Numbered from the stretch's first letter, positions 9,875 through 62,593 are shown. The stretch: 64,000 nt of DNA from an uncultured Chloroflexia bacterium (GCA_963777965.1 CAVZSS010000009.1:29379-93378); one strand, 5' to 3'. The notes: generated from the sequence alone by a model not told the origin. A program made the numbers and translations.

Positions 9875-10147
9875 ATGGATATTATGTCCAATCGACAACG
9901 GCTGGCACGCGAAAGGCTTGAAATATACCTGGTTCATCTTCTCATGGCATACCGGCCACTGGTATTCATCGTTGGTTTGCTCTTGTTGTTGTATAGCATC
10001 GCCTCCTTGTTCGCCAGCCCACTGGTAGGCTTCGCCAGCCTTATACCCGCCTCGTATCTCCTCCTTCTGAGTACTCTCTACCCTGTCATCCTTTACACAG
10101 CCCGATTGGGTGCATGGGTTGGCACTTTGGGCAGAGAGAAGGACTGA
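9875..10147 (+). CDS. small hypothetical membrane protein
   Basis: 90-aa ORF with two hydrophobic segments. No recognisable family. Confidence 0.3.
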   Translation: MDIMSNRQRLARERLEIYLVHLLMAYRPLVFIVGLLLLLYSIASLFASPLVGFASLIPASYLLLLSTLYPVILYTARLGAWVGTLGREKD

Positions 10148-10580
10148 TTGATATCAGGCTGAACGACCTCAAGTTGATACATGTTGTGAAGATTTCCCAT
10201 TAATTGCGAATTAAATAGCTGCTTTTTAAAAACGATGCGATAATATGAAAACGAATCTGCAAATTGTGATCATGCTAAGTTTGAAAAATAACTCAGGTCT
10301 CACAGGCATTTGCTGATCCGGTATTGGATGTCTTAGTGAAATGAGTATCAGCGCCGCTCCACAATCTCAGGACGATATCCAGCGCAAGGTTCGCCGTAAA
10401 CGCTGGCGCGTGTATTCCATGAAGACGGGAAAATCACTTCCTTCCTGGAGCAGGAGACCGTCTTGAATATGGGAGGTCATTGCCTGTGCACACACGATCT
10501 CAATATCAGGCTGGTTAAGTCAGCCGGTGGGTGGGTCCTGGAATACATCCTCATGTGCAGCTAGCCCCAAAAGTGAATAG

Positions 10581-11573
10581 ATGACCACACCGTTTCCTGT
10601 TATCGTCTCCATCCTCTCGCCTGAGGCGCTTGTCAATGAAATCCTGCCAGGTTTTGGGATTGGCGCAGTTGCAGAGTGTAAGTTCTACTCGGGTGGGTTC
10701 AACCATACTTACCGGGTTAAAACTGTCGCTGGCGTTATCTATTACCTGCGTAGCTACCGCATCCACTGGCGGACGCTGGCCGATGTCCAATACGAGTTGG
10801 ATGTGCTCAACCATCTTAAAAACCATGGGGTTCCTGCTGCCAGGCCGGTTGCCTTCAACGACGGTCGATATTTCTGCCTGGTGCCTGCCCAAGAAGGCAC
10901 GCGCATCCTGGCACTCTTCACCGAAGCGCCTGGACCAGAGATTTCCTACGAGCAAGACCCCGCAGGAAATGCCCAGCGTTATGGACGGGCTGTCGCCCAG
11001 ATGCACAATGCCCTCGATGATTTCACCAGCCCGCACCTGCGCTTCCACCTGGACCTCGCCCACTTTATCGACCAGCCTCTACACAATATTCATCCGTTCC
11101 TCTCTCACCGCCCTGATGATTGGAATTTTCTACAGCAGTTCGCCGAAAGGCTGCGCCAACGCATTTTGGCGATGCCGGCTGAAACCCTTGAGAAAGGCTG
11201 CTGCCATGGTGATTTACAGGGCTACCATGCCAACACCACCCCGGATGGCACGTTGACCTTCTTCGACTTCGACTGTGGTGGTTTTGGCTACCGGGCTTAC
11301 GACCTGGCTGTTTTCCTCTGGTGCTGCCGGCTTGAAGGTGCGGTCGCTGCGCGCTGGGCGCCTTTCTTGGAAAGCTACCGGGAAACCCGCTTCATCCATG
11401 AGCGCGATGTCCTGGCTGTTCCCTTGTTTGTCTGTGCCCGTTATCTTTGGCACATGGGTGTTCACGCCCAGAATTCCCCCGATTGGGGTATCGATTTCCT
11501 TAATGACAGGTATTATGACAATCACTTAAAAGACTTAAGGCAGGCTGAAGAAGATTATTTGATAGCAAAATGA
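10581..11573 (+). CDS. phosphotransferase family kinase (APH/ChoK/homoserine-kinase-II-like)
   Basis: Catalytic loop CCHGDLQGYHAN and metal-binding FFDFDCGGFGYRAYDLA, typical of the APH fold. Confidence 0.75.
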   Translation: MTTPFPVIVSILSPEALVNEILPGFGIGAVAECKFYSGGFNHTYRVKTVAGVIYYLRSYRIHWRTLADVQYELDVLNHLKNHGVPAARPVAFNDGRYFCLVPAQEGTRILALFTEAPGPEISYEQDPAGNAQRYGRAVAQMHNALDDFTSPHLRFHLDLAHFIDQPLHNIHPFLSHRPDDWNFLQQFAERLRQRILAMPAETLEKGCCHGDLQGYHANTTPDGTLTFFDFDCGGFGYRAYDLAVFLWCCRLEGAVAARWAPFLESYRETRFIHERDVLAVPLFVCARYLWHMGVHAQNSPDWGIDFLNDRYYDNHLKDLRQAEEDYLIAK

Positions 11574-12926: not shown

Positions 12927-13565
12927 ATGAGCACCGACATACGCCCACAGATTGTGCAAATATCCAATGAGTTGTATGCAAAATGCCTTATTACCTCTAC
13001 TGGGGGTAACATCAGCGCCCGCTGTGAGGATAACCCGGATGAGATGTGGATTACCCCCAGCGCAATATTTAAAGGTGACCTCCGCCCAGAAATGATGGTT
13101 TGCATCGATCTCCACGGCACTATCAAAGATAAATCTTCTTACCTGGCTTCCAGTGAACGCCGTGTGCACTGCGCCATCTATCGCTCCAGACCTGAGTTCA
13201 CCGCAGTGATTCACACCCATGCCCCCCAGGCCACCCTCATGGCTCTTACCGGGACCATATTTCTGCCGATTTCGTACGAATCAGCCTTCCTTGGGGATAT
13301 CCCCGTGGTACCATTCATCATGCCAGGGACGGATGCCCTGGGGGAGGCTGTCACCAACGCCATGGGAACTGGTTTTGCGGTTCTGATGCAGAATCACGGG
13401 TTGGTGGTGGCTGCCAGCAGCTTACGCCATGCTGCCGACATCACCGACATCATTGAAGTCACTGCCCACAAGCTTCTCACCTGCCGGGCGCTGGGGGTCA
13501 TCCCGCCTGTGCTAACAACCGATACCGTTGACTATATTCGTAAAACCGGAAATCTATTCGCCTGA
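12927..13565 (+). CDS. class II aldolase/adducin family protein
   Basis: [30 protein letters not shown] and LMQNHGLVV motifs. Confidence 0.8.
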
Positions 13566-13655
13566 GTGACCATACATCCACTCACCCGATGCTCGTTTTT
13601 CTTCCCTGCATCTGGCTCTTCAATAAGAAACCAATAAAATATAAGGAGGATAGTT

Positions 13656-14291
13656 ATGCCCACTGAATCTGCAGCTCAAGCGATGGCAATCTTGCGCAAC
13701 CCAATCACATTTCAATGGTATGTCATAACATTATTTGCTCTTATTGTGTATGTCTATGCCAACGAAGTGGAACGGCGTAACTGGAGTCTGGTCTTTGCCG
13801 GTCTGGCATTTTGGGGCATGGATTGGTTCAACGAGATCTGGAACGGGTTGGTTTTCCACTTTACCAATTACGCACCCGTCTGGGGTGCGCCTGGTCAGAC
13901 AGCTTACCTATTATTGATTGGCTTGAACATAGAGATTTGCTTTATGTTCGCCATCGCCGGGGTTACCTTCTCCAAGCTGCTACCTGCCGATAAAAGCCTC
14001 AAGATCCTGGGCGTGCCTAACCGTCTGCTTTTCGCCATACTTGGCTCAATTTTCTGCGTGATTGTTGAGCTTCTTTTGAATGCGGCTGGTGCACTGACCT
14101 GGGATTATTCCTGGTGGAATGTTGGTGCCCCCTGGCTGATCTTCCTGATCGGATACTTGCCCTTCTTCTTGGTCTCGTTCTGGGTGTTCGACATGCCCAC
14201 CCTGCGCCAGAAAGCCATCACCGTTGGGGTCATCCTCGGTTTTGACCTGATCTGCCTGGTCTTATTTGCTGGCGTATTGCACTGGATCTAA
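13656..14291 (+). CDS. hypothetical polytopic membrane protein
   Basis: 211 aa with about 6 hydrophobic segments. AGGAGG lies upstream of the ATG. Confidence 0.55.
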   Translation: MPTESAAQAMAILRNPITFQWYVITLFALIVYVYANEVERRNWSLVFAGLAFWGMDWFNEIWNGLVFHFTNYAPVWGAPGQTAYLLLIGLNIEICFMFAIAGVTFSKLLPADKSLKILGVPNRLLFAILGSIFCVIVELLLNAAGALTWDYSWWNVGAPWLIFLIGYLPFFLVSFWVFDMPTLRQKAITVGVILGFDLICLVLFAGVLHWI

Positions 14292-14298
14292 AAATAGC

Positions 14299-15498
14299 TC
14301 ACCAATTGGGTTCGGGGGTTGCGATGTCCAGCAGTGATTGTAAGATCCATCCCTTTCTTTCATCCTCAACTACCCGCACTTGGATCCATAGATACCCATC
14401 CACCTCCTGTGAGTCCCCCAGCAGCTGTATCAGCGTCCCCTGGACGATCCCCGGGTAGATGATGGCAGCATTGAAACCAGGTTCCTCGCGGATCAGCGCT
14501 CCTTCAGGCGGCGCAATACGAGCATAGACCGGCACCGGGGTTGGGGTAGATGTTATGGTGGGTGTGGGTGTGAGCGTCGGGGTAAGGGTGATTGTCGGGG
14601 TGAGGGTGGGAGGAACGGGTGTTGAGGTTATGGTGGATGTCGGTGGTATCGGTGTGAGAGTGGCTGTAGGAGTGGGAGTATACGTTGCCACAGCCAGCGG
14701 GCTGCCAAGCCATCCAAGCGTCGTGCTGAAGGCGCCTACGCCAACTACCAGCGCAATCAGGGTCAAAGTGACTGCCCCTCCCAGGGTGTATCCAAATATG
14801 CTCAACGGGCGAAAACCAAGGATTGCCAGGATGATTGCCCCCAGCACCACTCCCCAGGCAAGGTGGATGGCGAACACGACCAATCCATCCGGGAATAAAT
14901 GAGGTGCACCACTTCCAAAACCGAAACCAGCCGCTACAATCGGTAGGTACAACGTGTAAGCCAGTGCTACGCTCGGTGCGGCCGGGCTGCGTTCATGGTG
15001 TGCCATGGTCGCCGCAGTAAAAATTGCACCCACCGACAGCACGATAAAATTGATCGCGGATAATTCGGCATTGTTGTATGCCTGGGTTAAGGAGGCTGGC
15101 ATCCATAGCCTTCCCAGGAATCCGGCTGCTGCTCCCACCATGAAGACCAACAAGCTACCGATTGAGAAAGCCACCAGGCTGCGGGCAAAGAATTTAAAAG
15201 AACCGATCGCTGTCCCAAGTGAAAGGCCTATCACCGGTGCCATCAGAGGGGCAAACACAGCCCCCAAGACCAGCACTACCGGTGAATCCAGGAACAATCC
15301 AATACAGAAGATGACAGCTGAAAAAATTGAAAATAGGAAGAAATCAAAAGTAGGTGAGGTCCGATGCCTGAGCTGCTCCAGAACAATCGCCCGTTCATCT
15401 GCTTCCAGAGGTGCCAGCAACCGGCGTGCCCGTCTACGCCGCGCCGGTGGCATCAGGTCAGGATCATCAGGGATGTGTTCTGAATTAGGAAGGCTCAT
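14299..15498 (-). CDS. DUF389-like membrane protein with a Thr/Pro linker and a C-terminal SH3b-like domain
   Basis: TFDFFLFSIFSAVIFCIGL...LMAPVIGLSLG is DUF389-like. It is followed by a TPTPTATLTPIPPTST linker and a tail with YARIAPPEGALIREEPG...GYLWIQV...GWI. Confidence 0.65.
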   Translation of the reverse strand: MSLPNSEHIPDDPDLMPPARRRRARRLLAPLEADERAIVLEQLRHRTSPTFDFFLFSIFSAVIFCIGLFLDSPVVLVLGAVFAPLMAPVIGLSLGTAIGSFKFFARSLVAFSIGSLLVFMVGAAAGFLGRLWMPASLTQAYNNAELSAINFIVLSVGAIFTAATMAHHERSPAAPSVALAYTLYLPIVAAGFGFGSGAPHLFPDGLVVFAIHLAWGVVLGAIILAILGFRPLSIFGYTLGGAVTLTLIALVVGVGAFSTTLGWLGSPLAVATYTPTPTATLTPIPPTSTITSTPVPPTLTPTITLTPTLTPTPTITSTPTPVPVYARIAPPEGALIREEPGFNAAIIYPGIVQGTLIQLLGDSQEVDGYLWIQVRVVEDERKGWILQSLLDIATPEPNW

Positions 15499-52491: not shown

Positions 52492-54268
52492 TTATTTAAC
52501 TACTGGGATGGTCTCGAGCTGCTCGACCAGTCCTTGGATGACATTAAAACCACCCTGCCAAAAGCTTGCGTTATGTATATTTATCCCTGCATCAGAAAGT
52601 ATTTTTTCAGGGGGTTTTGACCCGCCTGCTGAAAGCAAATCCAGGTAGCGCGGCTTAAATGCGTTCCCTTCCACCTTATATTGCTGGTATAGGGATAAAA
52701 CCAGTAATTGACCAAAGGTATATGCATACACATAGAATGGTGTCTGGTAAATGTGGGGGATAGACACCCACTCCCAGCGGAATTCATCGCTGACTTCGAT
52801 GGCATCTCCAAACTGTTTATTCAGGTTCTCCAGGTAGGCGTTTGATAATTCATCAATCGTTGCGCTATTCTGAACCATATCATGGGCATGTCGTTCAAAC
52901 AAAGCAAATTGCGACTGGCGCATAACCGTAGCATAGGCGTCATCAACCTGGCGGAAGAGCAATGTTTGACGCACAGAAGCATCACTTTTTGTAGCCAGCA
53001 AGTGATCAATCAGGACCATCTCGCCAAAGGTGGAAGCTGTTTCGGCCAACGGGAGTGATGAATGGAAAGTGAACAGGCTGTGATCTGCAGCCAGCTGGGA
53101 GTGAATCGCATGACCAAGCTCATGAGCCAAGGTCGCCACATCATCGGGTTTGCCTTGATAGTTGACTAGAACCCAGGGAGTGATATCAGGGGCTACCGTC
53201 GCGCAAAATGCACCGCTCATCTTCCCTTTACGCACCTCGCTATCAAGGTGGCGTTGTTCAAGTACTTTATGGGCAAGATTGGATATTCTTGGCTCAAACC
53301 GCTGAAATGCATCAAAAACCATATCAGCGGCTTCATTAAAACTGTACATTTTCTCTGTTTTTACCACCGGCGCATAAATATCATAGCGGCGCAAGCGTTC
53401 CATTCCCAACCAGCGCGCTTTAAGTTGGAAAAATCGTTGAAAAACCGAAGTATTATCCTGGCATACACCCAATAAAGTGTCCACCACATCATTAGGGATA
53501 TCATTTGCCAGGTTACGCACAGCCATCGGACTGGTAAAGTGTCTCATATCCAGGTTTTCGTTATGCCAATCTCGCACCAGGGTCTGGTACATCTGGCCTA
53601 AGATTATGCCATCCTGACCATAAACACGGTATAGCTCCTGGTATGCCTTGGCGCGCATCATTGGGATCATAACTGCGTACGAAAACCATTAATTCTCCGC
53701 GGGTAAGCTCCTTTATCTCCCCGTCTACTTCCAGGTGGAAGATGTAACGATTGGTTAGTGTGTTGTACAGGTTGATGATCGCCCTCACACCAGTGACATC
53801 CTTGATATTAATCACCTTCTCTTCGGATTCCGTCAAGGTGTGCGGCTTGAAATGGCGCATCTCTTCCAGCCAATAGCGGTAATCGCCGGAGTAAGCCATC
53901 AACCGCTCGGCATCCTCCTCCTCCAGACTTTTCCACCACAGGCTAAAAAATAAAACGCGATTGGATATCAGCGCCATGCGGCTATCAACATCAGATTGAA
54001 AAGATTGTACAGCCTGGTCCTGAGTATCAGCGGCAAAACTTAACCCTGCAAAGTCGGCAATCCTGTTAGCCAGGCGCGAGATGGCTTCAAGCAAGCGAAT
54101 AGTATATAAAAATGCGTCCGGTGGCATTGCTGGGGAAAGGCTTGGGCGCAGGGCTTCGAGTTCAACCACCTTAACATCCACCTCGTCAAAGGCTGCTTTC
54201 ATTTCAGGGCTGTCATACGCTGGAAATAGATCGGATAGGCTCCAGGGAGATTGGGTAAATGTCATCAT
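52492..54268 (-). pseudogene. pepF: M3B oligoendopeptidase F-like, one frame break
   Basis: HELGH zinc motif in ORF 52492-53670. The N-terminal 235 aa are in ORF 53561-54268. The junction …MVFVRSYDPN / MRAKAYQELY lies near 53660. Confidence 0.8.
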
Positions 54269-54332: not shown

Positions 54333-55397
54333 TTAGACATTAAATCGAATATGCACGATTTCTCCATCGTGAACCACATATTCTTTTCCTTCTAATCGCA
54401 GGCGACCTTTAGCTTTTGCCTCATTCAAGCCACCCAGAGAGATGAGCTCATCATACTGGATTGCCTCCGCGCGAATAAAGCCTTTTTGCAGGTCTGTGTG
54501 AATCTCACCTGCGGCTTCATAGGCGGTTGACCCGCGGTGTATGGTCCAGGCTCGCACTTCGTCAGCTCCGACGGTGAAAAAAGAGATTAACCCCAGCAAA
54601 TCATACGATAAACTGATCACGCGTGCCAAACCAAGCTCGCTGATCCCATACTCTGACATAAAAAGACCTACATCTTCTGGGGCAAGCTGAGCGATTTCCA
54701 TCTCGAGCTTGCCTTGAAGCGCCACCAGGTTGCTGTGTGTGTGAGGATACTCGACCGCAGGCATTTCTTGTCCTTCGTGAAGGTTGAGTAATACAAGCAA
54801 GGGTTTGCGGGTCAGGAAGCCGAAACCAGCCAGTGTTTTTTCTTCTTCAGCGGTCAGGTCGATCTCCCGCAAGGGGATCTCCCGGGAAAGGGCGTCTTTA
54901 AAACGCTCGAAAAGTGCACCCTCCCGCTCGATAACCAGGCGCTCGCGCCCGCCCCCTTTTTTCCGTTCTTCTGCCAGGCGTTCCAGCTTTCGCTCTACCG
55001 CAATCATGTCATTGATGAGCAGTTCAGCATCCATCGTGGCGATATCACGCAAGGGATTCACGCTACCCGATGGATGAGCGACATTCAAGTCTTCGAAACA
55101 GCGCACAACGTGCAGCAAGCCATCCATTTGGGTAATTAAATTAAGCAGTTGCCCGGATATGGCACTTTGGCTTCCCTCCAACCCGGCGATATCGGCATAA
55201 GTCACCTTGGCATAAATCGTCTTTTTCGGTTTAAACAACTCCGACAGGCGGTCAACACGCCCATCCGGCACGTCCACCACCCCGGTATGTACATCAAACC
55301 TTCCACCACTGGTGGTCAATGGCTGATGCCCACGCGTCAGGGCATTAAAAACCGTCGTCTTTCCAGATTGGGGCAAGCCAATGATCCCTAGTCGCAT
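54333..55397 (-). CDS. ychF: redox-regulated ATPase YchF
   Basis: GIIGLPQSGKTTVFNALT P-loop and a C-terminal TGS-like domain (…VHDGEIVHIRFNV). Confidence 0.9.
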   Translation of the reverse strand: MRLGIIGLPQSGKTTVFNALTRGHQPLTTSGGRFDVHTGVVDVPDGRVDRLSELFKPKKTIYAKVTYADIAGLEGSQSAISGQLLNLITQMDGLLHVVRCFEDLNVAHPSGSVNPLRDIATMDAELLINDMIAVERKLERLAEERKKGGGRERLVIEREGALFERFKDALSREIPLREIDLTAEEEKTLAGFGFLTRKPLLVLLNLHEGQEMPAVEYPHTHSNLVALQGKLEMEIAQLAPEDVGLFMSEYGISELGLARVISLSYDLLGLISFFTVGADEVRAWTIHRGSTAYEAAGEIHTDLQKGFIRAEAIQYDELISLGGLNEAKAKGRLRLEGKEYVVHDGEIVHIRFNV

Positions 55398-55523
55398 TGG
55401 GTATCTCCTGCATTAGATCAGAATAATTATTGGGTTGTTTTTCATCATGTGCGATTATACTGCGGTTAGGAGGAACCCCTAAACTTTCGTTTTAGTTTCG
55501 GGTATAATGTTCTCCACCAACTT

Positions 55524-55605
55524 GCCGAAGTGGCGGAATAGGCAGACGCGCACGACTCAAAATCGTGTTCCGTAAGGAATGAGGGTTCAATTCCCTCCTT
55601 CGGCA
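55524..55605 (+). tRNA. tRNA-Leu (anticodon CAA), copy 1, CCA not encoded
   Basis: Class II cloverleaf: acceptor GCCGAAG/CTTCGGC, anticodon stem CACGA/TCGTG, loop CTCAAAA, variable arm TTCC-GTAA-GGAA, T arm GAGGG-TTCAATT-CCCTC. TATAAT at 55503-55508. Confidence 0.9.
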
Positions 55606-55756
55606 CTAATTTTAGACAAAACCAGTCAGAATTTCTTGGATCTTGAGGAATTCTTGGCTGATTTGCGTTTTGAGTAGAGGGGATAATTAGATGAGCTTGC
55701 AATCATCTTTAATAAGAATTCCTCGGACGCTTGATGTATTCCCACTCATCGACATT

Positions 55757-56947
55757 CTATGGAGTCACAGCTTTACTCTGCTGTGAAGAGCAAGATTCCT
55801 TTTTAAGTTGGTGAATTAACTCTTGTATTGTTTGCAAAGGCATTACTGAGATTTTCTTATCAACCTGGTAAGCATCCACCCCGGGATAAACCACCCACAA
55901 ATAAGACAAGTCCAGATCGTGCATGGCAGTTTGCATCGAACGGGTAATCTCAGGCGCTTCACTGAACTTCACTTCGATCCCGTAACGTTTCCCTTTGTGG
56001 AAGAATAGCAAATCCAACTCCGCACCATTATGGGTTCCCCAAAAATAGGCTTCTAAGGGACGGATGATTTGCAGCACTTGCTCGATCACGTATCCTTCCC
56101 AGGAAGCGCCAACTTTGGGGTGACCCAATAGGGTATGTATATCCTGAATATTGAGTAAGCCGTGTAAGAGACCGCTGTCGCGCAAATAGATCTTCGGCGC
56201 CCGCACTTGGCGTTTGCCCATATTTTCATACCATGGCTGGAGTTGACGCACCATAAAAGCCCCGGTAAGAATATCCAGGTAACCGCGTACCGTTTTATCC
56301 GACAGCCCCATCGCACGGCCGAGCTCGGATGCATTCCAGGTTTGGGCGTGATAATGGGCCAACATCGTCCAGAAACGCCGCATTGAAGTGGCAGGAATTT
56401 GAATGCCAAGCTGTGGAATGTCCCGCTCCAGGAAGGTGCGGATAAATCCTTCCCGCCATGTCAAGGAGTCTGCTTCATCATCTGCAAGGAAAGAACGCGG
56501 GAAGCCACCTCGAATCCAGAGCAATTCCCAATTAGAGCTCCCGACTTCGGCTAGATTAAATCCATTTAGATCTACAAACTCGATCCGCCCGGCAAGCGTT
56601 TCTGAAGCATTCCGGATGATGTCAGGCGAGGCACTACCCAGGATGATGAAACGTGCTTTTTGTCCCGGGCGATCCGCCAGCACTCTCAGGGTTCCAAATA
56701 ACTCCGGCATCAACTGGATTTCATCCAGAATGACCAAGCCTTCCAGGGTTCTCAACACAAGTTCGGGGTTCTGGAGTCGGCGCTGATCCGGAATAGATTC
56801 CAGGTCAAAGAAAGTCGCTGGTTTGAGCTCAGCGAACATTCGCGCAAGGGTGGTTTTCCCTGTTTGTCGCGGTCCCAGCAACGCCGTTATGGGAGAGCGG
56901 CGAACTGCCGTTTTCAATAATTCGAGATAATCCGGGCGTTTAATCAT
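55757..56947 (-). CDS. AAA+ ATPase (AAA_14 / DUF4143 family)
   Basis: Walker A GPRQTGKTT and Walker B LVILDEIQ. The C-terminal half is DUF4143-like. Confidence 0.8.
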   Translation of the reverse strand: MIKRPDYLELLKTAVRRSPITALLGPRQTGKTTLARMFAELKPATFFDLESIPDQRRLQNPELVLRTLEGLVILDEIQLMPELFGTLRVLADRPGQKARFIILGSASPDIIRNASETLAGRIEFVDLNGFNLAEVGSSNWELLWIRGGFPRSFLADDEADSLTWREGFIRTFLERDIPQLGIQIPATSMRRFWTMLAHYHAQTWNASELGRAMGLSDKTVRGYLDILTGAFMVRQLQPWYENMGKRQVRAPKIYLRDSGLLHGLLNIQDIHTLLGHPKVGASWEGYVIEQVLQIIRPLEAYFWGTHNGAELDLLFFHKGKRYGIEVKFSEAPEITRSMQTAMHDLDLSYLWVVYPGVDAYQVDKKISVMPLQTIQELIHQLKKESCSSQQSKAVTP

Positions 56948-57002
56948 CCGCTAATTATAGCATGAAATCTCGGAGTCGTACTCCGAGATTTCCGATCGAT
57001 AT

Positions 57003-57326
57003 TCACTCTTGGCAAGGCCAAGTGAACATGAGAGTGGAAGCCATAATAGGTCTGTCGAGCAACATCATCGTGATCATTGGCTGCCTGACGAAAAAAGTTG
57101 TCCGATTAATCTTGCCTAAGCCTGGAAACCAATCTATATAGTTTCTGCAAAAGTATGAAAAATCTTCCAGACTAACCCGCTTAGGCTGAATACCGCTGCC
57201 CACACACATGGGGCAAGGGGCATAGCGTATGTATGTCTCGCCTTTGGAGCTCTTAGCCTCTCCCATAGGTACATAGGCTTCGCCATTACAGTGCGAACAA
57301 GTGGCTAGGATATGGACTTTGAGCAT
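57003..57326 (-). CDS. small protein with a DnaJ-type CxxCxGxG zinc finger
   Basis: CSHCNGEA … CPMCVGSG in the first 45 aa. AAAGGAGG RBS upstream. The C-terminal half is low quality and may be out of frame. Confidence 0.45.
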   Translation of the reverse strand: MLKVHILATCSHCNGEAYVPMGEAKSSKGETYIRYAPCPMCVGSGIQPKRVSLEDFSYFCRNYIDWFPGLGKINRTTFFVRQPMITMMLLDRPIMASTLMFTWPCQE

Positions 57327-57339
57327 GGTTACCTCCTTT

Positions 57340-57560
57340 CTTAGTAAGAATCAAAGAAGCCCGCCCCAAACTCAAGAAAATGAGTTCGAGACGGGCTTGG
57401 ATAAGCCGTGCGATATGACACGGAATACAGGTTGCACGGCTGCCCGCACCCCGCTCCCCCCTATCCAGGCGGTGCCCTATGGGGTCATCGACACTTGGGG
57501 AAATTATTCAATTGTTGATACCCCCTATGCTCACTTATCGACTTCTTGACCCCTTATCAT
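57340..57560 (-). promoter_or_regulatory. structured 5-prime leader with a terminator-like hairpin (candidate cis-regulatory RNA)
   Basis: On the minus strand there are nested helices GGGGUCA/UGACCCC, GCACCGC/GCGGGGUGC and GCCGUGC/GCACGGC. A 16-bp hairpin (57359-57396) is then followed by CUUCUUUGAUUCUU, the RBS and the ATG. Confidence 0.35.
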
Positions 57561-57999
57561 AGGTAGCTCTAAAATGAGCAGAATATGTAGATTGAAATCC
57601 TTTTCTCCTGAATGGTCTAGTAAACATGGAATATTGATGTTCCCGATGAATGTTCACATTTAGTAAGTGTAACCACTTACGTGTCTAGGTGATTATTGCC
57701 CAGAGGCGATTTCGAGGTGAAAATAGTGGAGTGTGTTGCGTTGTTAGGGATTCTTCAGTATACTAGATGTAAGTACAGTTGCAGCGCTTCTCGAAATGTG
57801 AAATGCGAGTAGCAATAACGCGGCTAGAACACTGTATATCCAGCTTATATTGCGATGATAAACAGGGAATTTGCAGGATATCAAGAGTCCGTAAAATCAC
57901 TAGTTAGCCGCCTGTTGCAGGAGTAAGGAGTAATCGCAAAAAATATAAACTTCCATTGTCACATGCGTTCTGATTCGTATTAGCCAAGGGAGAAAACTA

Positions 58000-58785
58000 A
58001 TGGATATACAGCAACCCGTTCCCAAAATTTCACTCGATGAGTTGCGACAGGAAATCAAGAAAGAGTACACCAATGTTGCACTCGACCCCAATAAGGGATA
58101 CCACTTTCACACTGGACGCCGTCTTGCAAAATTGCTCGGATACGATGAAGCCTTGTTCGCCGACCTTCCCGAAAGCAATATTGCCTCCTTCGCTGGAACT
58201 GGAAATCCGTTTTCTGTCGGAACAATCAATTCTGGCGAGACCGTCGTAGATGTTGGTTCTGGCGCAGGTTTCGATTCTCTTATCGCATCGCGTCTGGTTG
58301 GCGCATCTGGTCGAGTTATAGGCTTCGACATGACAGCGGAAATGTTGAAGAAAGCGCAAGCGGGAGCGATGGCGATGGGAGCATCGAATGTTGAATTCCG
58401 CGAAGGGCTTGCAGAGTCATTGCCTCTACCCGATAAGTTTGCCGATGTAGTGATTAGCAATGGCGTCCTCAATCTTACTCTCGACAAAACCGAGACGCTT
58501 CGTGAATGGTTTCGTATTCTCAAACCAGGCGGACGATTGCAGGTGGGCGATATTTTAGTTGAACGCGAATTACCATCAGATGCAGTAGATGATATTTCGC
58601 TCTGGACTGGCTGAATTGCTGGCGCTCTGCTGGACGCAGAGTTACTCCGCGCCGTGAGCGCGGCTGGTTTTGTAGATGAAAAAATCGTTCACAAGTACAA
58701 CAATTATGAAGATGTACCCGAGCCGTCTGACGCGCTGGATTTCGGAACGCAAGGTATCAGTTTCCGCGCTCAAAAGCCTTTATAA
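58000..58785 (+). CDS. SAM-dependent methyltransferase (ArsM-like, type 11) interrupted by an in-frame TGA at 58612-58614
   Basis: VVDVGSGAGFDS SAM motif. It is colinear with ArsM-type proteins up to DISLWTG-TGA-IAGALL, then stays in the same frame to TAA 58783-58785. Confidence 0.7.
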
Positions 58786-59238
58786 GATAAACAAAGGCTT
58801 CTCAATCCAAAGACGGCTAACAAAGCGTGCACTGGACGGGTGGGGATTCTGCGCCTTTTCAAGCATTTTCCTCGCTTTGAGTTTTTTCTGCTCTTGAACA
58901 TTATCCACGCCCCAGCGCAGGTAACGCAAGCCGTTGGGCTGTTCCGACAATATAAATGAGGTACGGGGGAAATATTTACGTCACAGAACCTCACAACGTG
59001 AGAAATCTGGATATGTGATTCCTGGAACGCACGTTCTATTCTGATACAATGAACTCATGAAATCCCTCGCCAAGGCCTCTCGCACGTGCAAGAAGGGCAT
59101 TGACTTGATATGATTTGATGTCAACGCACATTGATTGAAGATTTATATCTGATTTTACTAAAAGTTTACGGGTAGGATGTAGTGCCTTCACACACCAACA
59201 TCCATAACAGTAATTTCATACAAATAATATAGCTAAAC

Positions 59239-59616
59239 ATGACTCGATATTTTAAATGTTCAAAATGTGACATGATTTATGATCTACAGGAAACAAGTTC
59301 TGAACCTATCTCATGTCCTTTGTGTGGTTCTTTACAAGACCTATCTGTTTCTGTTGAAGAAACAATCCATGTCCATGAGTGGCTGCAAAAGAAAGATAGG
59401 ATAGCTGGCTATAAAGAACCAATAGGCGAACAAGTCGTTGGTGATGAGTTATCCTATTCATCTGGAAGATGGGTTTACAAACAGAGGATTATCGACCGAA
59501 CAAATAACTTGTATTATGAAGTCGTGATCGATAAAGAGACAGGAAATATTATTCATCATTGCAATGAACCATTAGATCAACATCATGGTCATGGTTCTGA
59601 TAAGAAATACAAATAA
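59239..59616 (+). CDS. hypothetical protein with an N-terminal zinc ribbon
   Basis: CSKC…CPLC within the first 30 aa. AT-rich, no recognisable family. Confidence 0.45.
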   Translation: MTRYFKCSKCDMIYDLQETSSEPISCPLCGSLQDLSVSVEETIHVHEWLQKKDRIAGYKEPIGEQVVGDELSYSSGRWVYKQRIIDRTNNLYYEVVIDKETGNIIHHCNEPLDQHHGHGSDKKYK

Positions 59617-59670
59617 GGCTTCTTCAATAAATAGATGCTTGTATTATCCAAGCCCTAATAGAATGGTTTG

Positions 59671-60574
59671 TTACAGTCTGTTATTATCTACAGGGCTCCC
59701 TATCCTGTGCGCCTGAGCAATGTCCTCTGTAGTTTGAGCTTTGTAAGCTGAAAACATCCACTCCAGCACGAAGCATGTTGAGAGCAAATGATCGTCGAAA
59801 GGAATGGAGAGTTGGTGCTTTTATTCCAGCCTGTTTCGCCCGACGTTCAAGTATCCCCCTCAAACCTCGATATTCCAATCGTTCTCCTTCTTCAGTTATC
59901 CACAGGGCAGGATGGTCATCTAGGCGATGCTTCAGATAAGTGCGCATGGATTTTCTACTCGCCTTTCCTATAAAGACGGTTCGGGATTTACCTCCCTTTC
60001 CATGATGGATGAAGATTTCTCCACTAACGGGATTGGTGTCTTGAATGTTTACTCCCAATACTTCTCGCGCTCTTGCTCCCGTATCTAGGAGAAACATTAT
60101 CAATGCTTTATCCCGATAATCCAGAAACGAATTTGCTTCGCAGGTTTTCACGAGTGCTGATACATCTTCAGGTTCAACGGGCGATAGCGGTTCGTTCGAC
60201 ACTTTGGGTGCTTTCACCTTGCAAATAGGGTTCTTCCAGCCGTCGGGTTCTGCTTCGCTTTCATACCACATTAGGAATACTCGTAATGTACTAAATGTGG
60301 CGTGTAATCCGCCAGGGTTATGCCCTGTTTCCTGATGCCATAATAGAAATTGACGGATAACATTGGATGTAATATCCTCAATACTGGATATAAGCTGCGA
60401 TTCGCAATACTTCATGAAATGCCCTAGTTGCTGTTTATAGAAGGTAAGCGTAAACCCTGATACCCCTTCTATTTTCTTCGATTGATAGAATTGATTCGCC
60501 CATTCAAGCAGGTTGTAACGGACAAGATTTTCTATAATCGTGTGCGTTGAGTTGTCTTGATTGTTTGTATACAT
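59671..60574 (-). pseudogene. tyrosine recombinase/integrase with a disrupted 3-prime catalytic region
   Basis: R (LDTGARAREV), K (GKGGKSRTV) and HxxR (LHSFRRSFA) are present. After …GVDVFS the conserved tail AYKAQTTEDIAQAHRIGSPVDNNRL appears only in another frame (stop at 59671-59673), and the LLGH box is missing. Confidence 0.75.
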
Positions 60575-60660
60575 GGTTTAGCCTCCTGACTAATGGTCTA
60601 GATATGGGGGCCTAACCATCTTTTCCCGATTTCATGTACTATATATGGGGGTAGCTTCCA

Positions 60661-60745
60661 GCCGAAGTGGCGGAATAGGCAGACGCGCACGACTCAAAAT
60701 CGTGTTCCGTAAGGAATGAGGGTTCAATTCCCTCCTTCGGCACCA
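60661..60745 (+). tRNA. tRNA-Leu (anticodon CAA), copy 2, followed by CCA
   Basis: Identical to copy 1 over 83 nt. Here the discriminator base is followed by CCA. Confidence 0.9.
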
Positions 60746-60753
60746 TACGGCGC

Positions 60754-60794
60754 AAAAACCACCTGAAACAATAATCATTGGGTGGTTTTTATTT
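60754..60794 (+). terminator. terminator-like hairpin after tRNA-Leu copy 2
   Basis: AAAAACCACC / GGTGGTTTTT stem with a 17-nt loop, then a T-rich tract. Confidence 0.55.
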
Positions 60795-60825
60795 ACCCAT
60801 TATTCCATATCTCTGGTATTTCAGC

Positions 60826-61224
60826 TTATCCTGCCACCCTGGTAAATACGCTGAACACAGGCGGGGTTTCCAGGTGTTTTTTCACCGCACACAACTCAGC
60901 TGTGCGCACTAATGATGGTAGATATTTCTCCGGGAAATCGGTTGGAACTTAAATCTCCAGGTCTACACTCTCAATCATACCGGTTTGCTGATTTCTATGG
61001 GCTCGCTGGATCACCCTCATCCCTTCCGTGGGCAGGTTTCGCTGCTTACAAAAGCCAAGTACATAGATCCCGGCACAGGTGGCAATTGAAGCCAGAAAGA
61101 GTAAGAATGGCGTGGGTGCCGAGCCAGGCGCGCCACTTTTATTGGGTTGGTCGGTCATCACGGTATAAGGTCCAAAATGGGCATCCACACGATCTCCACC
61201 CGGAAAATCAATCATCATATCCAT
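60826..61224 (-). pseudogene. OsmC/Ohr family protein with an in-frame TAA
   Basis: ORF 60949-61269 ends …IESVDLEI-TAA. The same frame continues VPTDFPEKYLPSLVRTAELCAVKKHLETPPVFSVFTRVAG to TAA 60826-60828. Both OsmC cysteine regions are present (IATCAG, AELCAV). Confidence 0.7.
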
Positions 61225-61317
61225 AAATATTCTCTCCACTGATCTTATTTTATATTGGGTTAGATGCAATTCTCTAACATTCGTTTCTTAACCAATAATT
61301 CTGGGTATGGAATAGCT

Positions 61318-62593
61318 TCACTCGATAAGATTGAAAGCAGGCGTAGATTCTTTTTGCCCTCCTTTCCATAACCAGAAAAACCAATAAAGGAAAACCGAGA
61401 TGGTATAAAGAATAATTGTACCCAGGAATGGAGGTCCAAATCCATAACGCACTTGAAGAATCCCGCTGATCGTCGGGCTGATCGCCCATCCAAAGTTCCA
61501 TGACATACTCACCAGGCTGGCAACCATTGCCCTGGAGGAAGCATCCACTTGCTCCATGACAAAAGTCTGGTACACGGGAGAGCTCATGTTCATCAGCGCA
61601 ACTCGAATGTAATATGCGAATGCGCTGACCCAGAACAGCGGGGCAAATCCTAACAAAATCAGGAATGGAATAGATAACGCTTGAGTGAACACTACAACCT
61701 GTATCTTTCCAAAGCGATCCGCCAACGGTGGGGCTGCCAATAAACCCAGCCCCATAGCCAGGGAACCCCAGGCAAATAAAACGCCGATCACCTGGTCTGA
61801 TTGGTTGTATTGTACGCGGAAAAATACATTCATGAAGGGCATGATCAACCCCGCCCCAATCGAAGTGATTAGCATGGGCAGAATGAGCTTGGTCAATTTC
61901 TTCGGGTGTTTTGTTGCAAAAGAAATAGGCGCAAAGACGGTTCTCTCTGCTTGTTCAACACGTGGTATGCGGATAAGAAGCAGAGGAATAATTCCCACAG
62001 CCAATGCAACCGCCACGACCAGGAGCGAACCAGCATAAGCCTGGCTGCTGATCGAACTCGACCTCAAGCCTGCCTGCCACCCAGGTCGGCAGGTAACCAC
62101 CAATCCAACTGCCCACAGAGGCAGATACCATTTGTAAACCAGCTGTCAAGCTGAATAAATAGGTGCGTTCATGCGTACCGCTGTTTTCCATCAAAAACGG
62201 GCTCATCGTAACAGCGGCCAGGCTCTGTGCAATACCGGACAGGATATTCGTGCCATACAGAACAGGTGTGACCGGAAAGATCACCATCATGCCAACAGAG
62301 ACGCTGATCAGCGCCGCTGAAATGAGCAGGGAAGCTTTTCGTCCCAGCAGATCCGCCAGGTAACCCATGGGTAAAGCAAAAATCAAGGCTGTAATGCTGC
62401 TGACGGTCACCAGGTTACCCAACAACTTCTCATCGTAACCCAGGCTGAGGATATAAAAATTAAACAATAAGCGGAAGATTCCCATGGCGATGCCGGTAAT
62501 CATTGCATATATTAAATACAGGCGTGCATTCGGGCGGAATGCCGCCAGGTGATCTCCGTAGTCTTTTATGGTGCGCTTGATACCAGCAATCAT
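61318..62593 (-). pseudogene. MFS transporter, one frame break
   Basis: ORFs 61955-62593 and 61318-62103 are colinear (…GGYLPTWVAGRL / RSSSISSQAYAGSLLVV…). The break lies near 62070. Confidence 0.75.

Follow-up and report, generated by a model that had tools for sequence, protein, structure and literature searches.

The window analyzed here is a 64,000 nucleotide stretch of an uncultured Chloroflexia bacterium (G000:C9:29379-93378), which belongs to an Anaerolineae-type metagenome-assembled genome, a 2.8-Mb bin of 36 contigs that is 64% complete. It holds two complete copies of a tRNA-Leu(CAA) gene with an island of foreign genes between them, and our main finding is that the DNA between the tRNA-Leu copies came in by horizontal transfer, at an integration hot spot used throughout the genus. 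The original prediction, made from the sequence alone, had proposed an inserted island and had taken it for a single 5-kb element. The insertion is confirmed by the comparison with relatives, but the single element is not, since the closest relative (G007) separates the island into two stacked modules, an older remnant (module A) and a younger integrase-bearing element (module B). Taken as a whole, we consider it likely that the island is a stack of two elements at one hot spot, that the attachment site of the mobile form (attP) held a whole tRNA, that strands were exchanged in the anticodon stem-loop, and that the integrase is now dead. Islands in tRNA genes that are bounded by a tRNA repeat, crossover in the anticodon loop and tandem arrays are all textbook, and the window island is a decayed example of this known kind and not a new mechanism.

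The island is bounded by an 83-nt direct repeat (55524-55606 and 60661-60743) that is 100% identical, has a spacing of 5137 nt and consists of the whole tRNA gene. A repeat search, the ARAGORN calls of tRNA-Leu(CAA) at 55524-55606 and 60661-60745, and the Rfam tRNA model, which scores 60 bits for each copy, all bear out the perfect whole-gene repeat that had been noticed at both ends. The identity runs from tRNA position 1 to the first C of CCA, and the flanks are unrelated. The sequence also agrees with the earlier description of the two ends: copy 1 has a TATAAT box upstream and no encoded CCA, while copy 2 is followed by CCA. The nucleotides after copy 1 are CTA, and the CCA of copy 2 leads into a hairpin and a run of T. 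The block aaactttc...gtttcgggtataat upstream of the promoter-side tRNA is kept in same-genus genomes, empty sites included, and an equivalent hairpin is found 3' of the single tRNA at the empty sites of three relatives (G003, G004 and G012). Given that both are conserved at empty sites, we take the block upstream of copy 1 to be the native promoter and the CCA and hairpin of copy 2 to be the native 3' flank. Both window copies carry an A at position 66 that is rare in the genus. An Rfam scan of 55000-61500 at E <= 1 gave, besides the tRNAs, three weak sub-threshold matches that overlap the tRNA copies only. A search for the CCA-adding enzyme (PF01743) returned no match, which is uninformative in a genome that is 64% complete.

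The evidence that the island was inserted comes from the tRNA-Leu(CAA) locus of 17 relatives, onto each of which the window proteins were mapped. The gene order ssb-pepF-ychF-tRNA-Leu-OsmC-MFS is conserved among same-genus genomes. The single-tRNA empty site that an inserted island predicts is present in G003, G004 and G012, which have the promoter, one tRNA, CCA or CAA, the terminator hairpin and OsmC within ~200 nt, and in G001, which has a single tRNA and ~490 nt in the same interval. Elsewhere the interval between tRNA and OsmC is occupied. A full second tRNA copy accompanies inserts of 3.3 kb in G011, 4.4 kb in G021, 1.9 kb in G017 and at least 11.7 kb, on two contigs, in G010, and G009 has 5.7 kb from the first tRNA to OsmC with a full second copy 1.7 kb in. 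The second copy is reduced to positions 33-83 in the 4.7 kb insert of G015, and no second copy was found in the 7.7 kb insert of G020. The cargo is different in every occupied site, including that of a sister contig in our own bin (C18), where it is a DUF2079 membrane protein. G017 carries a GT87 glycosyltransferase, G015 a SUKH-family protein, and G010 (L025 and L026) a type III restriction enzyme (ResIII), an N6/N4 DNA methylase and a Hypoth_Ymh protein beside an intact integrase, so that the G010 island brings defense cargo to the same tRNA-Leu hot spot. With empty sites in some relatives and unrelated inserts of 2-12 kb in others, the ychF / tRNA-Leu(CAA) / OsmC interval is an integration hot spot.

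Table 1. Features of the tRNA-Leu(CAA) island and its borders, in window coordinates (ORF, open reading frame; aa, amino acids; SAM, S-adenosylmethionine; SECIS, selenocysteine insertion sequence)
Feature	Position	Strand	Basis or remark
TATAAT, native -10 box of the chromosomal tRNA-Leu(CAA) gene	55503-55508	+	Sequence; 15 nt upstream of copy 1
tRNA-Leu(CAA) copy 1, attL-type junction	55524-55606	+	Native promoter and 5' flank, element-derived 3' flank
Module A, remnant of older insertion	55607 to ~57030		94% identical to G007
AAA_14 and DUF4143 ATPase, 396 aa	55757-56947	-	Pfam DUF4143 4.5e-43, AAA_14 4e-22
Decayed right end of module A	56948-57050	+	Hairpin-bearing spacer common to G007, then decayed tRNA 5' stub
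CxxC...CxxCxGxG zinc-finger ORF	57003-57326	-	Weak DnaJ_CXXCXGXG match (Pfam)
Module B, younger integrase-bearing element	~57031-60660		No counterpart in G007
Conserved non-coding block upstream of CxxC ORF	57388-57642		blastn; no Rfam match
ArsM-like SAM methyltransferase, 261 aa	58000-58785	+	Pfam Methyltransf_31; in-frame TGA 58612-58614
SECIS-like hairpin GCUCUGC-UGGAC-GCAGAGU	58625-58643	+	Fold; 10 nt after UGA, 7-bp
Zinc-ribbon ORF, 125 aa	59239-59616	+	Weak Zn_ribbon_8 / FmdB and PepSY matches only
Tyrosine integrase pseudogene, XerC/D-like	59671-60574	-	Pfam Phage_integrase, DNA and protein alignments
Integrase-proximal arm (P arm)	60575-60660		86 nt; repeat and conservation
tRNA-Leu(CAA) copy 2, attR-type junction, encoded CCA	60661-60745	+	Element 5' flank, native 3' flank
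Native terminator hairpin of the chromosomal tRNA gene (AAAACCACC...GGTGGTTTTT)	60754-60790	+	Sequence

The integrase, DUF4143 ATPase, CxxC ORF, zinc-ribbon ORF and methyltransferase that had been listed between the repeats are all present (Table 1). The integrase lies next to an att site, as an ORF (59684-60574, minus strand) that is transcribed divergently from copy 2, with 86 nt between its start and the 5' end of that tRNA. It matches Phage_integrase (PF00589) at 4.5e-28, over profile positions 4-152 of 172, but the gene is inactivated in the window copy. A 44-nt deletion near 59740 takes out KLMGHSDLQVLRRYL, which contains the catalytic Tyr as well as the second His box, and throws the remainder out of frame. 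The conserved integrase tail AQTTEDIAQAHRIGSPVDNNRL is found in another frame by three-frame translation and by DNA alignment with G010b and G021. The catalytic set is thereby incomplete, with ARAR, GKGGK and HSFRR kept and the LMGH...RRY segment deleted. The homologue in G010b is intact, with 315 aa, 77% identity, all the motifs and the end ...SLQKLMGHSDLQVLRRYLAQTTEDVAQAHRIGSPVDRNNI. Since the window integrase has lost the second His box and the Tyr nucleophile, the island should be fixed and its self-mobility gone, and no excised circle is expected from a Tyr-less pseudogene. The phage collection contained only integrases of < 30% identity and thus no evidence of phage origin, and viral contigs scanned for the P arm together with the tRNA gave 0 matches.

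The P arm between the integrase and copy 2 has two direct ATATGGGGG motifs (60602-60610 and 60643-60651) that are 41 nt apart, and the pattern ATATGGKGG has three matches in the 64 kb, two of them in this arm. A -10-like TATATAT lies 14 nt 5' of copy 2, much as the native TATAAT lies 15 nt 5' of copy 1. Conservation of the arm extends to G021, G010b, G009 and five metagenome contigs. Two side observations concern the G021 island (L017). Its integrase stops at an in-frame TAG, 14 codons before the C-terminus of the G010b protein, and an ORF at about 9900-10850, just 3' of the integrase, may encode a group II intron reverse transcriptase, which it resembles by its appearance.

The whole-tRNA duplication becomes easier to understand when the window is compared to related elements. 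G021 and G010 have integrases that are 83% and 77% identical to ours, the same P arm and a full tRNA-Leu at both ends, with no module A, and a B-type element would therefore supply both halves of the tRNA. In two metagenome contigs, L078 and L083, this P arm leads into a full tRNA. More distantly, integrase homologues at E <= 1e-60 (41-56% identity) were found in 35 of the 300 other genomes of the order that were searched, and in 17 of the 29 loci examined a complete tRNA lies ~30-250 nt from the 5' end of the homologue, tandem or divergent to it (ARAGORN). The integrase tree has an unresolved backbone, although its well-supported subclades are each uniform in tRNA target and in orientation. 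Among homologue loci whose island could be followed to its far end, the whole gene is duplicated for tRNA-Lys(TTT) in G266, tRNA-Met in G050 and tRNA-Thr(CGT) in G164. The duplicated part is the promoter and positions 1-39 for tRNA-Leu(TAG) in G264 (L067: 9690-9803, 19640-19797) and for tRNA-Arg(TCG) in G139 (L070: 13780-13862, 19765-19883). The latter two islands belong to the rare '5' fragment' class, and because promoter and positions 1-39 are duplicated, the integrase-side tRNA owes its promoter and 5' half to the element and their sole intact tRNA is transcribed from element-supplied DNA. The original prediction of an element type that carries a full tRNA agrees with the full copies in G021 and G010 and with the tRNA-Lys, tRNA-Met and tRNA-Thr islands. 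To judge from the integrated copies in the window, G021, G010, G266, G050 and G164, the attP would hold a full tRNA copy.

Partial repeats help to place the crossover. At the tRNA-Leu(CAA) site the repeat in G015 covers positions 33-83, and L034, L079, L082 and L084 have the same P arm with a degenerate 5' half and an intact 29-83. All the partial blocks (33-83, 29-83 and 1-39) contain the anticodon loop at positions 33-39; the crossover would have taken place at the anticodon stem-loop. The 5' half of the tRNA is degenerate in L079, L082, L084 and G007 and the 3' half is intact, which suggests that the 5' half of copy 2 came from the element. The integrase-side copy in G009 differs at positions 11, 17 and 24. 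On the alignments, copy 1 would be made of a native 5' half and an element 3' half, and copy 2 of an element 5' half and a native 3' half. The suggestion that copy 2 is element-borne would then hold for its 5' flank and probably its 5' half, but it fails for the CCA and the terminator, which are native 3' flank. That the identity stops exactly where the mature tRNA does could mean that constraint acts on the tRNA part alone. In a separate locus (L066, from G283), extra tRNA-Met 3' parts (positions 41-54 and 55-72) are found at 69-127, directly 3' of the integrase-side tRNA-Met, and these may be relics of earlier integrations at that site.

The alternative that survives best is that the elements carry only a partial tRNA and that the whole-tRNA repeat is secondary, having arisen by gene conversion of a partial copy against a full one or through the combination of a 3'-restoring module A and a 5'-restoring module B. 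Both copies are 100% identical with the rare A66, close relatives of module B have only 29-83 beside the same P arm, homologous integrases are found with pure 5'-fragment repeats, and the window island truly consists of two modules, all of which speak for it. We nevertheless think it unlikely, because in G021 and G010, which have no module A, each end carries a full copy, and the single nucleotide differences between the two copies in G021 and in G009 argue against homogenization. The full-length pattern also recurs independently at tRNA-Lys, tRNA-Met and tRNA-Thr, and the 5' half in L079 is a degenerate tRNA half and not some unrelated sequence, suggesting that a full copy has decayed there. 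A whole-tRNA attP thus stays the preferred explanation of the repeat.

The division of the island into two modules is based on G007, whose neighboring proteins are 89-95% identical to those of the window. The window from 55402 to 57030 aligns with 13339-14966 of G007 (L021) at 94% identity (blastn), and the alignment resumes from 60674. Between the aligned stretches G007 has a decayed tRNA only, in which positions 14-83 are 90% identical and the 5' end is scrambled. Module A stands by itself there, with the tRNA on one side and the decayed copy on the other. Since G007 has module A without module B, module A is an independent and older unit. The ATPases of the two genomes are 95% identical in amino acid sequence. 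In a pairwise alignment the homology to G007 ends after AATAGG, at tRNA position ~19, in the stub GCCAAGTGAACATG...AATAGG at ~57017-57050. In G007 the same offset, 5' of the decayed tRNA, is occupied by GATTTCATGTA, which matches 11 nt of the integrase-proximal arm exactly and identifies the G007 site as a worn attR of this element type.

Module B is defined by a backbone common to the window, G010b and L034, which consists of the integrase, the arm, the first 57 codons of the CxxC ORF and the non-coding block upstream of that ORF. Only codons 1-57 of the CxxC ORF (57156-57326) are kept in related elements, at 63% identity in G010b and 60% in L034 (tblastn), and the remainder enters the A/B junction. 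This junction does not have the form of a canonical att site, and the distal tRNA junction of module B is lacking. The distal arm of related elements (TGGCAG..TATATGGTGGTAATCT.. or ..TGCCAGATACGGGAG..) is not present in the window, and a search of the window for the distal-arm motif TATGGTGGTAATCT gave no match above chance, which suggests that module B has lost its distal end.

These comparisons bear directly on the idea of a single 5-kb element with ATPase-centered cargo and the CxxCxGxG protein as a partner of the ATPase. The two genes are indeed adjacent, on the same strand and 55 nt apart, but that 55-nt spacer contains the decayed module A junction. In addition, G007 has the ATPase alone, with a decayed tRNA repeat of its own at the boundary, and in G010b and L034 the CxxC gene occurs with the integrase but with no ATPase. 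A single element is therefore very unlikely. The co-occurrence of the two genes, which had been suggested as a check, is not seen, and we reject the partnership.

Other possible problems could be associated with the assembly. Many contig ends of the bin overlap other contigs at 85-97% identity (C13/C26, C25/C28, C27/C28, C34/C35 and C10/C9), which makes the bin a mixture of closely related populations, although its contamination is reported as 0.86%. In particular, C18:1-15967 is a second version of C9:84077-96525 (window 54699 onward), 79-89% identical, which has its own identical tRNA-Leu and a different 4-kb insert. A third identical tRNA-Leu copy (C18:821-903) might have been a paralogue, but we discarded this reading, the C18 locus being the version of a sister population. 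Given such a mixture, and an A/B junction that has no independent support, module A of one strain could have been joined to module B of another in a chimeric assembly. The putative parents have only the 6 nt AATAGG in common at the junction, which is too short for a k-mer or overlap join, and relatives independently support both tRNA junctions, the left by G007 and the right by G021, G010b and L034. A chimera is accordingly a slightly poorer explanation still than the single element. Finally, a native tandem duplication of the tRNA with resident genes between the copies would explain why the two genes are complete and identical and why each is preceded by a -10-like box, but has a negligible chance in view of the empty sites, the variable content of the slot, the presence of an integrase and a methyltransferase whose nearest relatives are in other families of the order.

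Our preferred account of two stacked elements with a whole-tRNA attP does have points that weigh against it. The non-canonical A/B junction and the missing distal arm of module B require an assumed deletion. Related populations are mixed in the bin, and no contig other than this one shows the A/B junction. There was no excised or free form of the attP among the viral contigs, and no close phage integrase. Lastly, both tRNA copies are fully identical and share the rare A66 although their halves should differ in origin, which hints at gene conversion or at elements circulating in a single population.

With these points in mind, the history of the locus could be as follows. An older element would have inserted at tRNA-Leu(CAA), and module A would be its remnant, which keeps the ATPase and a decayed right junction. 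Module B would then have entered at the terminator-side repeat of module A, with an attP in which a complete tRNA-Leu(CAA) lay between the P arm (two ATATGGGGG motifs and the -10-like box) and a distal arm. Its integrase, transcribed away from the 5' end of the tRNA, would have exchanged strands in the anticodon stem-loop to give two full hybrid genes. Copy 1 would combine the native promoter and native 5' half with an element 3' half that has no CCA, and copy 2 would combine the element arm and element 5' half with the native 3' half, the CCA and the native terminator. A later deletion would have damaged the A/B junction, and we infer that it took a hybrid tRNA together with the distal end of module B. 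The 44-nt deletion in the integrase would then have fixed the island. The cargo of module B, the methyltransferase and the two small zinc-finger ORFs, is apparently intact.

The cargo of module A is the ATPase, which matches the PADLOC system PDC-S01 (model PDLC04790 at 9.5e-79, and six further PDC-S01 models) and is a candidate single-gene phage-defense protein. Like PDC-S01 it gives a strong match to the profile models and is a single gene, and it is found in a variable hot spot that holds a type III restriction-modification system in G010; no partner gene is conserved at the window locus. A literature search on PDC-S01 returned census-type papers only, with no experimental test found, and PDC-S01 is itself a computational candidate.

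In module B, the methyltransferase ORF is interrupted by a TGA within SLWTG-*-IAGALL, and its frame is open on to 58785. Six orthologues from other families of the order (L086-L091; 69-80% identity) all have a TGA at codon 205, in SLWTG-U-IAGALL, and the alignment of the orthologues continues past it to residue 260. The conserved in-frame TGA probably encodes selenocysteine. A hairpin that may be a SECIS, GCUCUGC-UGGAN-GCAGAGY, follows the UGA in 6/6 orthologues with wobble changes; its fold energy is no better than that of shuffled sequences. Of the selenocysteine machinery, the search covered SelA, SelB and the tRNA. SelA is found in the genome at 432 bits. No tRNA for selenocysteine scored above threshold, which is uninformative at the completeness of this genome. 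A SelB-like gene (C5:114454-116341; L096 and L097) aligns to its model as separate segments, residues 2-136 and residues 138-580, and the second of these is reported to contain a TAA. Either the selenocysteine elongation factor is broken or the assembly is in error, which bears on whether the selenoprotein can be made.

The best NCBIfam matches of the methyltransferase are ArsM-type selenoprotein families and PRK11873, all below their cut-offs: 240 against 510 for NF041537, 227 against 460 for NF047649, 216 against 575 for NF041536, and 224.6 against 263 for PRK11873, which places the protein outside the ArsM family proper. It is like these selenoproteins in its SAM methyltransferase fold and in the UGA at the Cys of ...W-x-G-C-I/L-A-G-A, but it has a single U and no AhpD, DUF2284 or UXPK extension, and is a simpler relative. 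By eye, the protein reads SFAGTGNP and VISNGVLNL at what would be Cys positions in ArsM. The same-genus genomes that were searched contain only 43-44% identical paralogues with no TGA, and the TGA orthologue in none, which indicates that the methyltransferase was imported. The neighborhoods of the orthologues differ, so that it was apparently imported alone. Judged by its conservation, the protein is probably a stand-alone ArsM-like selenoprotein outside the NCBIfam selenoprotein models.

The non-coding block upstream of the CxxC ORF has blastn matches in L034, G010b, G021, G020 (3 copies), G009 and G015 and on our own contigs C18, C19, C22, C25 and C29. Its core of ~150 nt (~57440-57590; ...CCAGGCGGTGCCCTAT-GGGGTCATCGACAC...TATTCAATTGTTGA..TACCCCCTATGTTCACTTA...) is a dispersed repeat, with copies in the same genome at C19:207849, C22:20965, C29:68863 and 182384, C25:5318, and C18:1114 and 1510. 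It is also found in L015 (3 copies), L017, L019, L020, L026 and L034, several of which are islands at this tRNA. It could act as an RNA or as a promoter module, or be a miniature mobile repeat. The view of the block as a riboswitch-like leader specific to the CxxC gene is weakened by its core being dispersed.

The composition of the island sets it apart only marginally. It has 45.4% GC compared to 51.2% for the window, and 4% of the equal-sized windows are equally low. The immediate flanks have 47.3% and 45.3%, so the island is not distinct locally, and the AT-richness pointed out in the original prediction holds only against the wider contig, as a marginal signal. The zinc-ribbon ORF sits in the most AT-rich part of the island, at 37-38% GC. 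Outside the island, the flanking pepF-like (52492-54268) and MFS (61318-62593) genes are each broken into two overlapping ORFs. The density of disrupted genes in the window (pepF-like, MFS, integrase) is unusual and could be due to real decay or to errors in the assembly consensus.

Looking at known systems helps to place the locus. The Islander survey (Hudson, Lau & Williams 2015, PMC4383910) reports 3760 islands with a 3' fragment of the tRNA gene, and 159 of 3919 with a 5' fragment. In the 'anticodon-centred' class A of Islander sites, strands are exchanged within the 7-nt anticodon loop, with the stem on either side as core sites. The window island is like this class in having a tyrosine integrase inside a tRNA-bounded island, and the block boundaries of its relatives likewise converge on the anticodon stem-loop. 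It is unlike that class in that its repeat is the whole gene and not a fragment, and in that its integrase, which is transcribed divergently from the second copy, sits at the opposite end from the promoter-side tRNA. With the 5' tDNA-displacing islands of the same survey it shares the layout of copy 2, which is that of the G264 and G139 homologues where promoter and positions 1-39 are duplicated; the difference is that the promoter-side copy in the window is complete and the host is independent of the element promoter. The 'tDNA filter' of Islander discards repeats that fall in full-length tRNA genes (PMC4383910), and islands like this one would therefore be dropped. The duplication of a whole tRNA was rightly called unusual in the original prediction, but there is precedent. 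In the passage of Furuta et al. 2010 that cites them (PMC2853133, references 55 and 57), Haemophilus phage HP1 and Streptococcus phage T12 are given as cases of integration involving an entire tRNA gene, in which the identity block covers the complete tRNA and two complete copies result. Those are functional temperate phages of Proteobacteria and Firmicutes, whereas here we have a 3.6-kb Anaerolineae element with no recognizable phage genes.

A more general picture can be put forward only tentatively, and we regard it as rather doubtful. The small XerC/D-like integrases of the Anaerolineales may define mini-elements that carry their own expressed tRNA module, either a whole gene or a promoter and 5' half, and that duplicate the transcription of the host tRNA, or take it over, instead of only restoring the 3' end. 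Such elements would be hidden from fragment-based finders, and an identity block with exact ends would reflect selection on a functional element-borne tRNA.

None of these findings changes the current understanding of site-specific integration. What is most notable is that one integrase family uses 3'-fragment, 5'-fragment-plus-promoter and whole-gene blocks around one anticodon-loop core. The locus shows why islands with two full tRNA genes escape fragment-based detection, and the mixture of sister populations in the bin is a practical warning. The comparison also marks the DUF4143 ATPase and the probable selenocysteine methyltransferase as horizontally delivered cargo and not as core genes. 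The locus thus illustrates how a tRNA hot spot gathers and then fossilizes small mobile elements in the Anaerolineae, a poorly studied part of the Chloroflexota.

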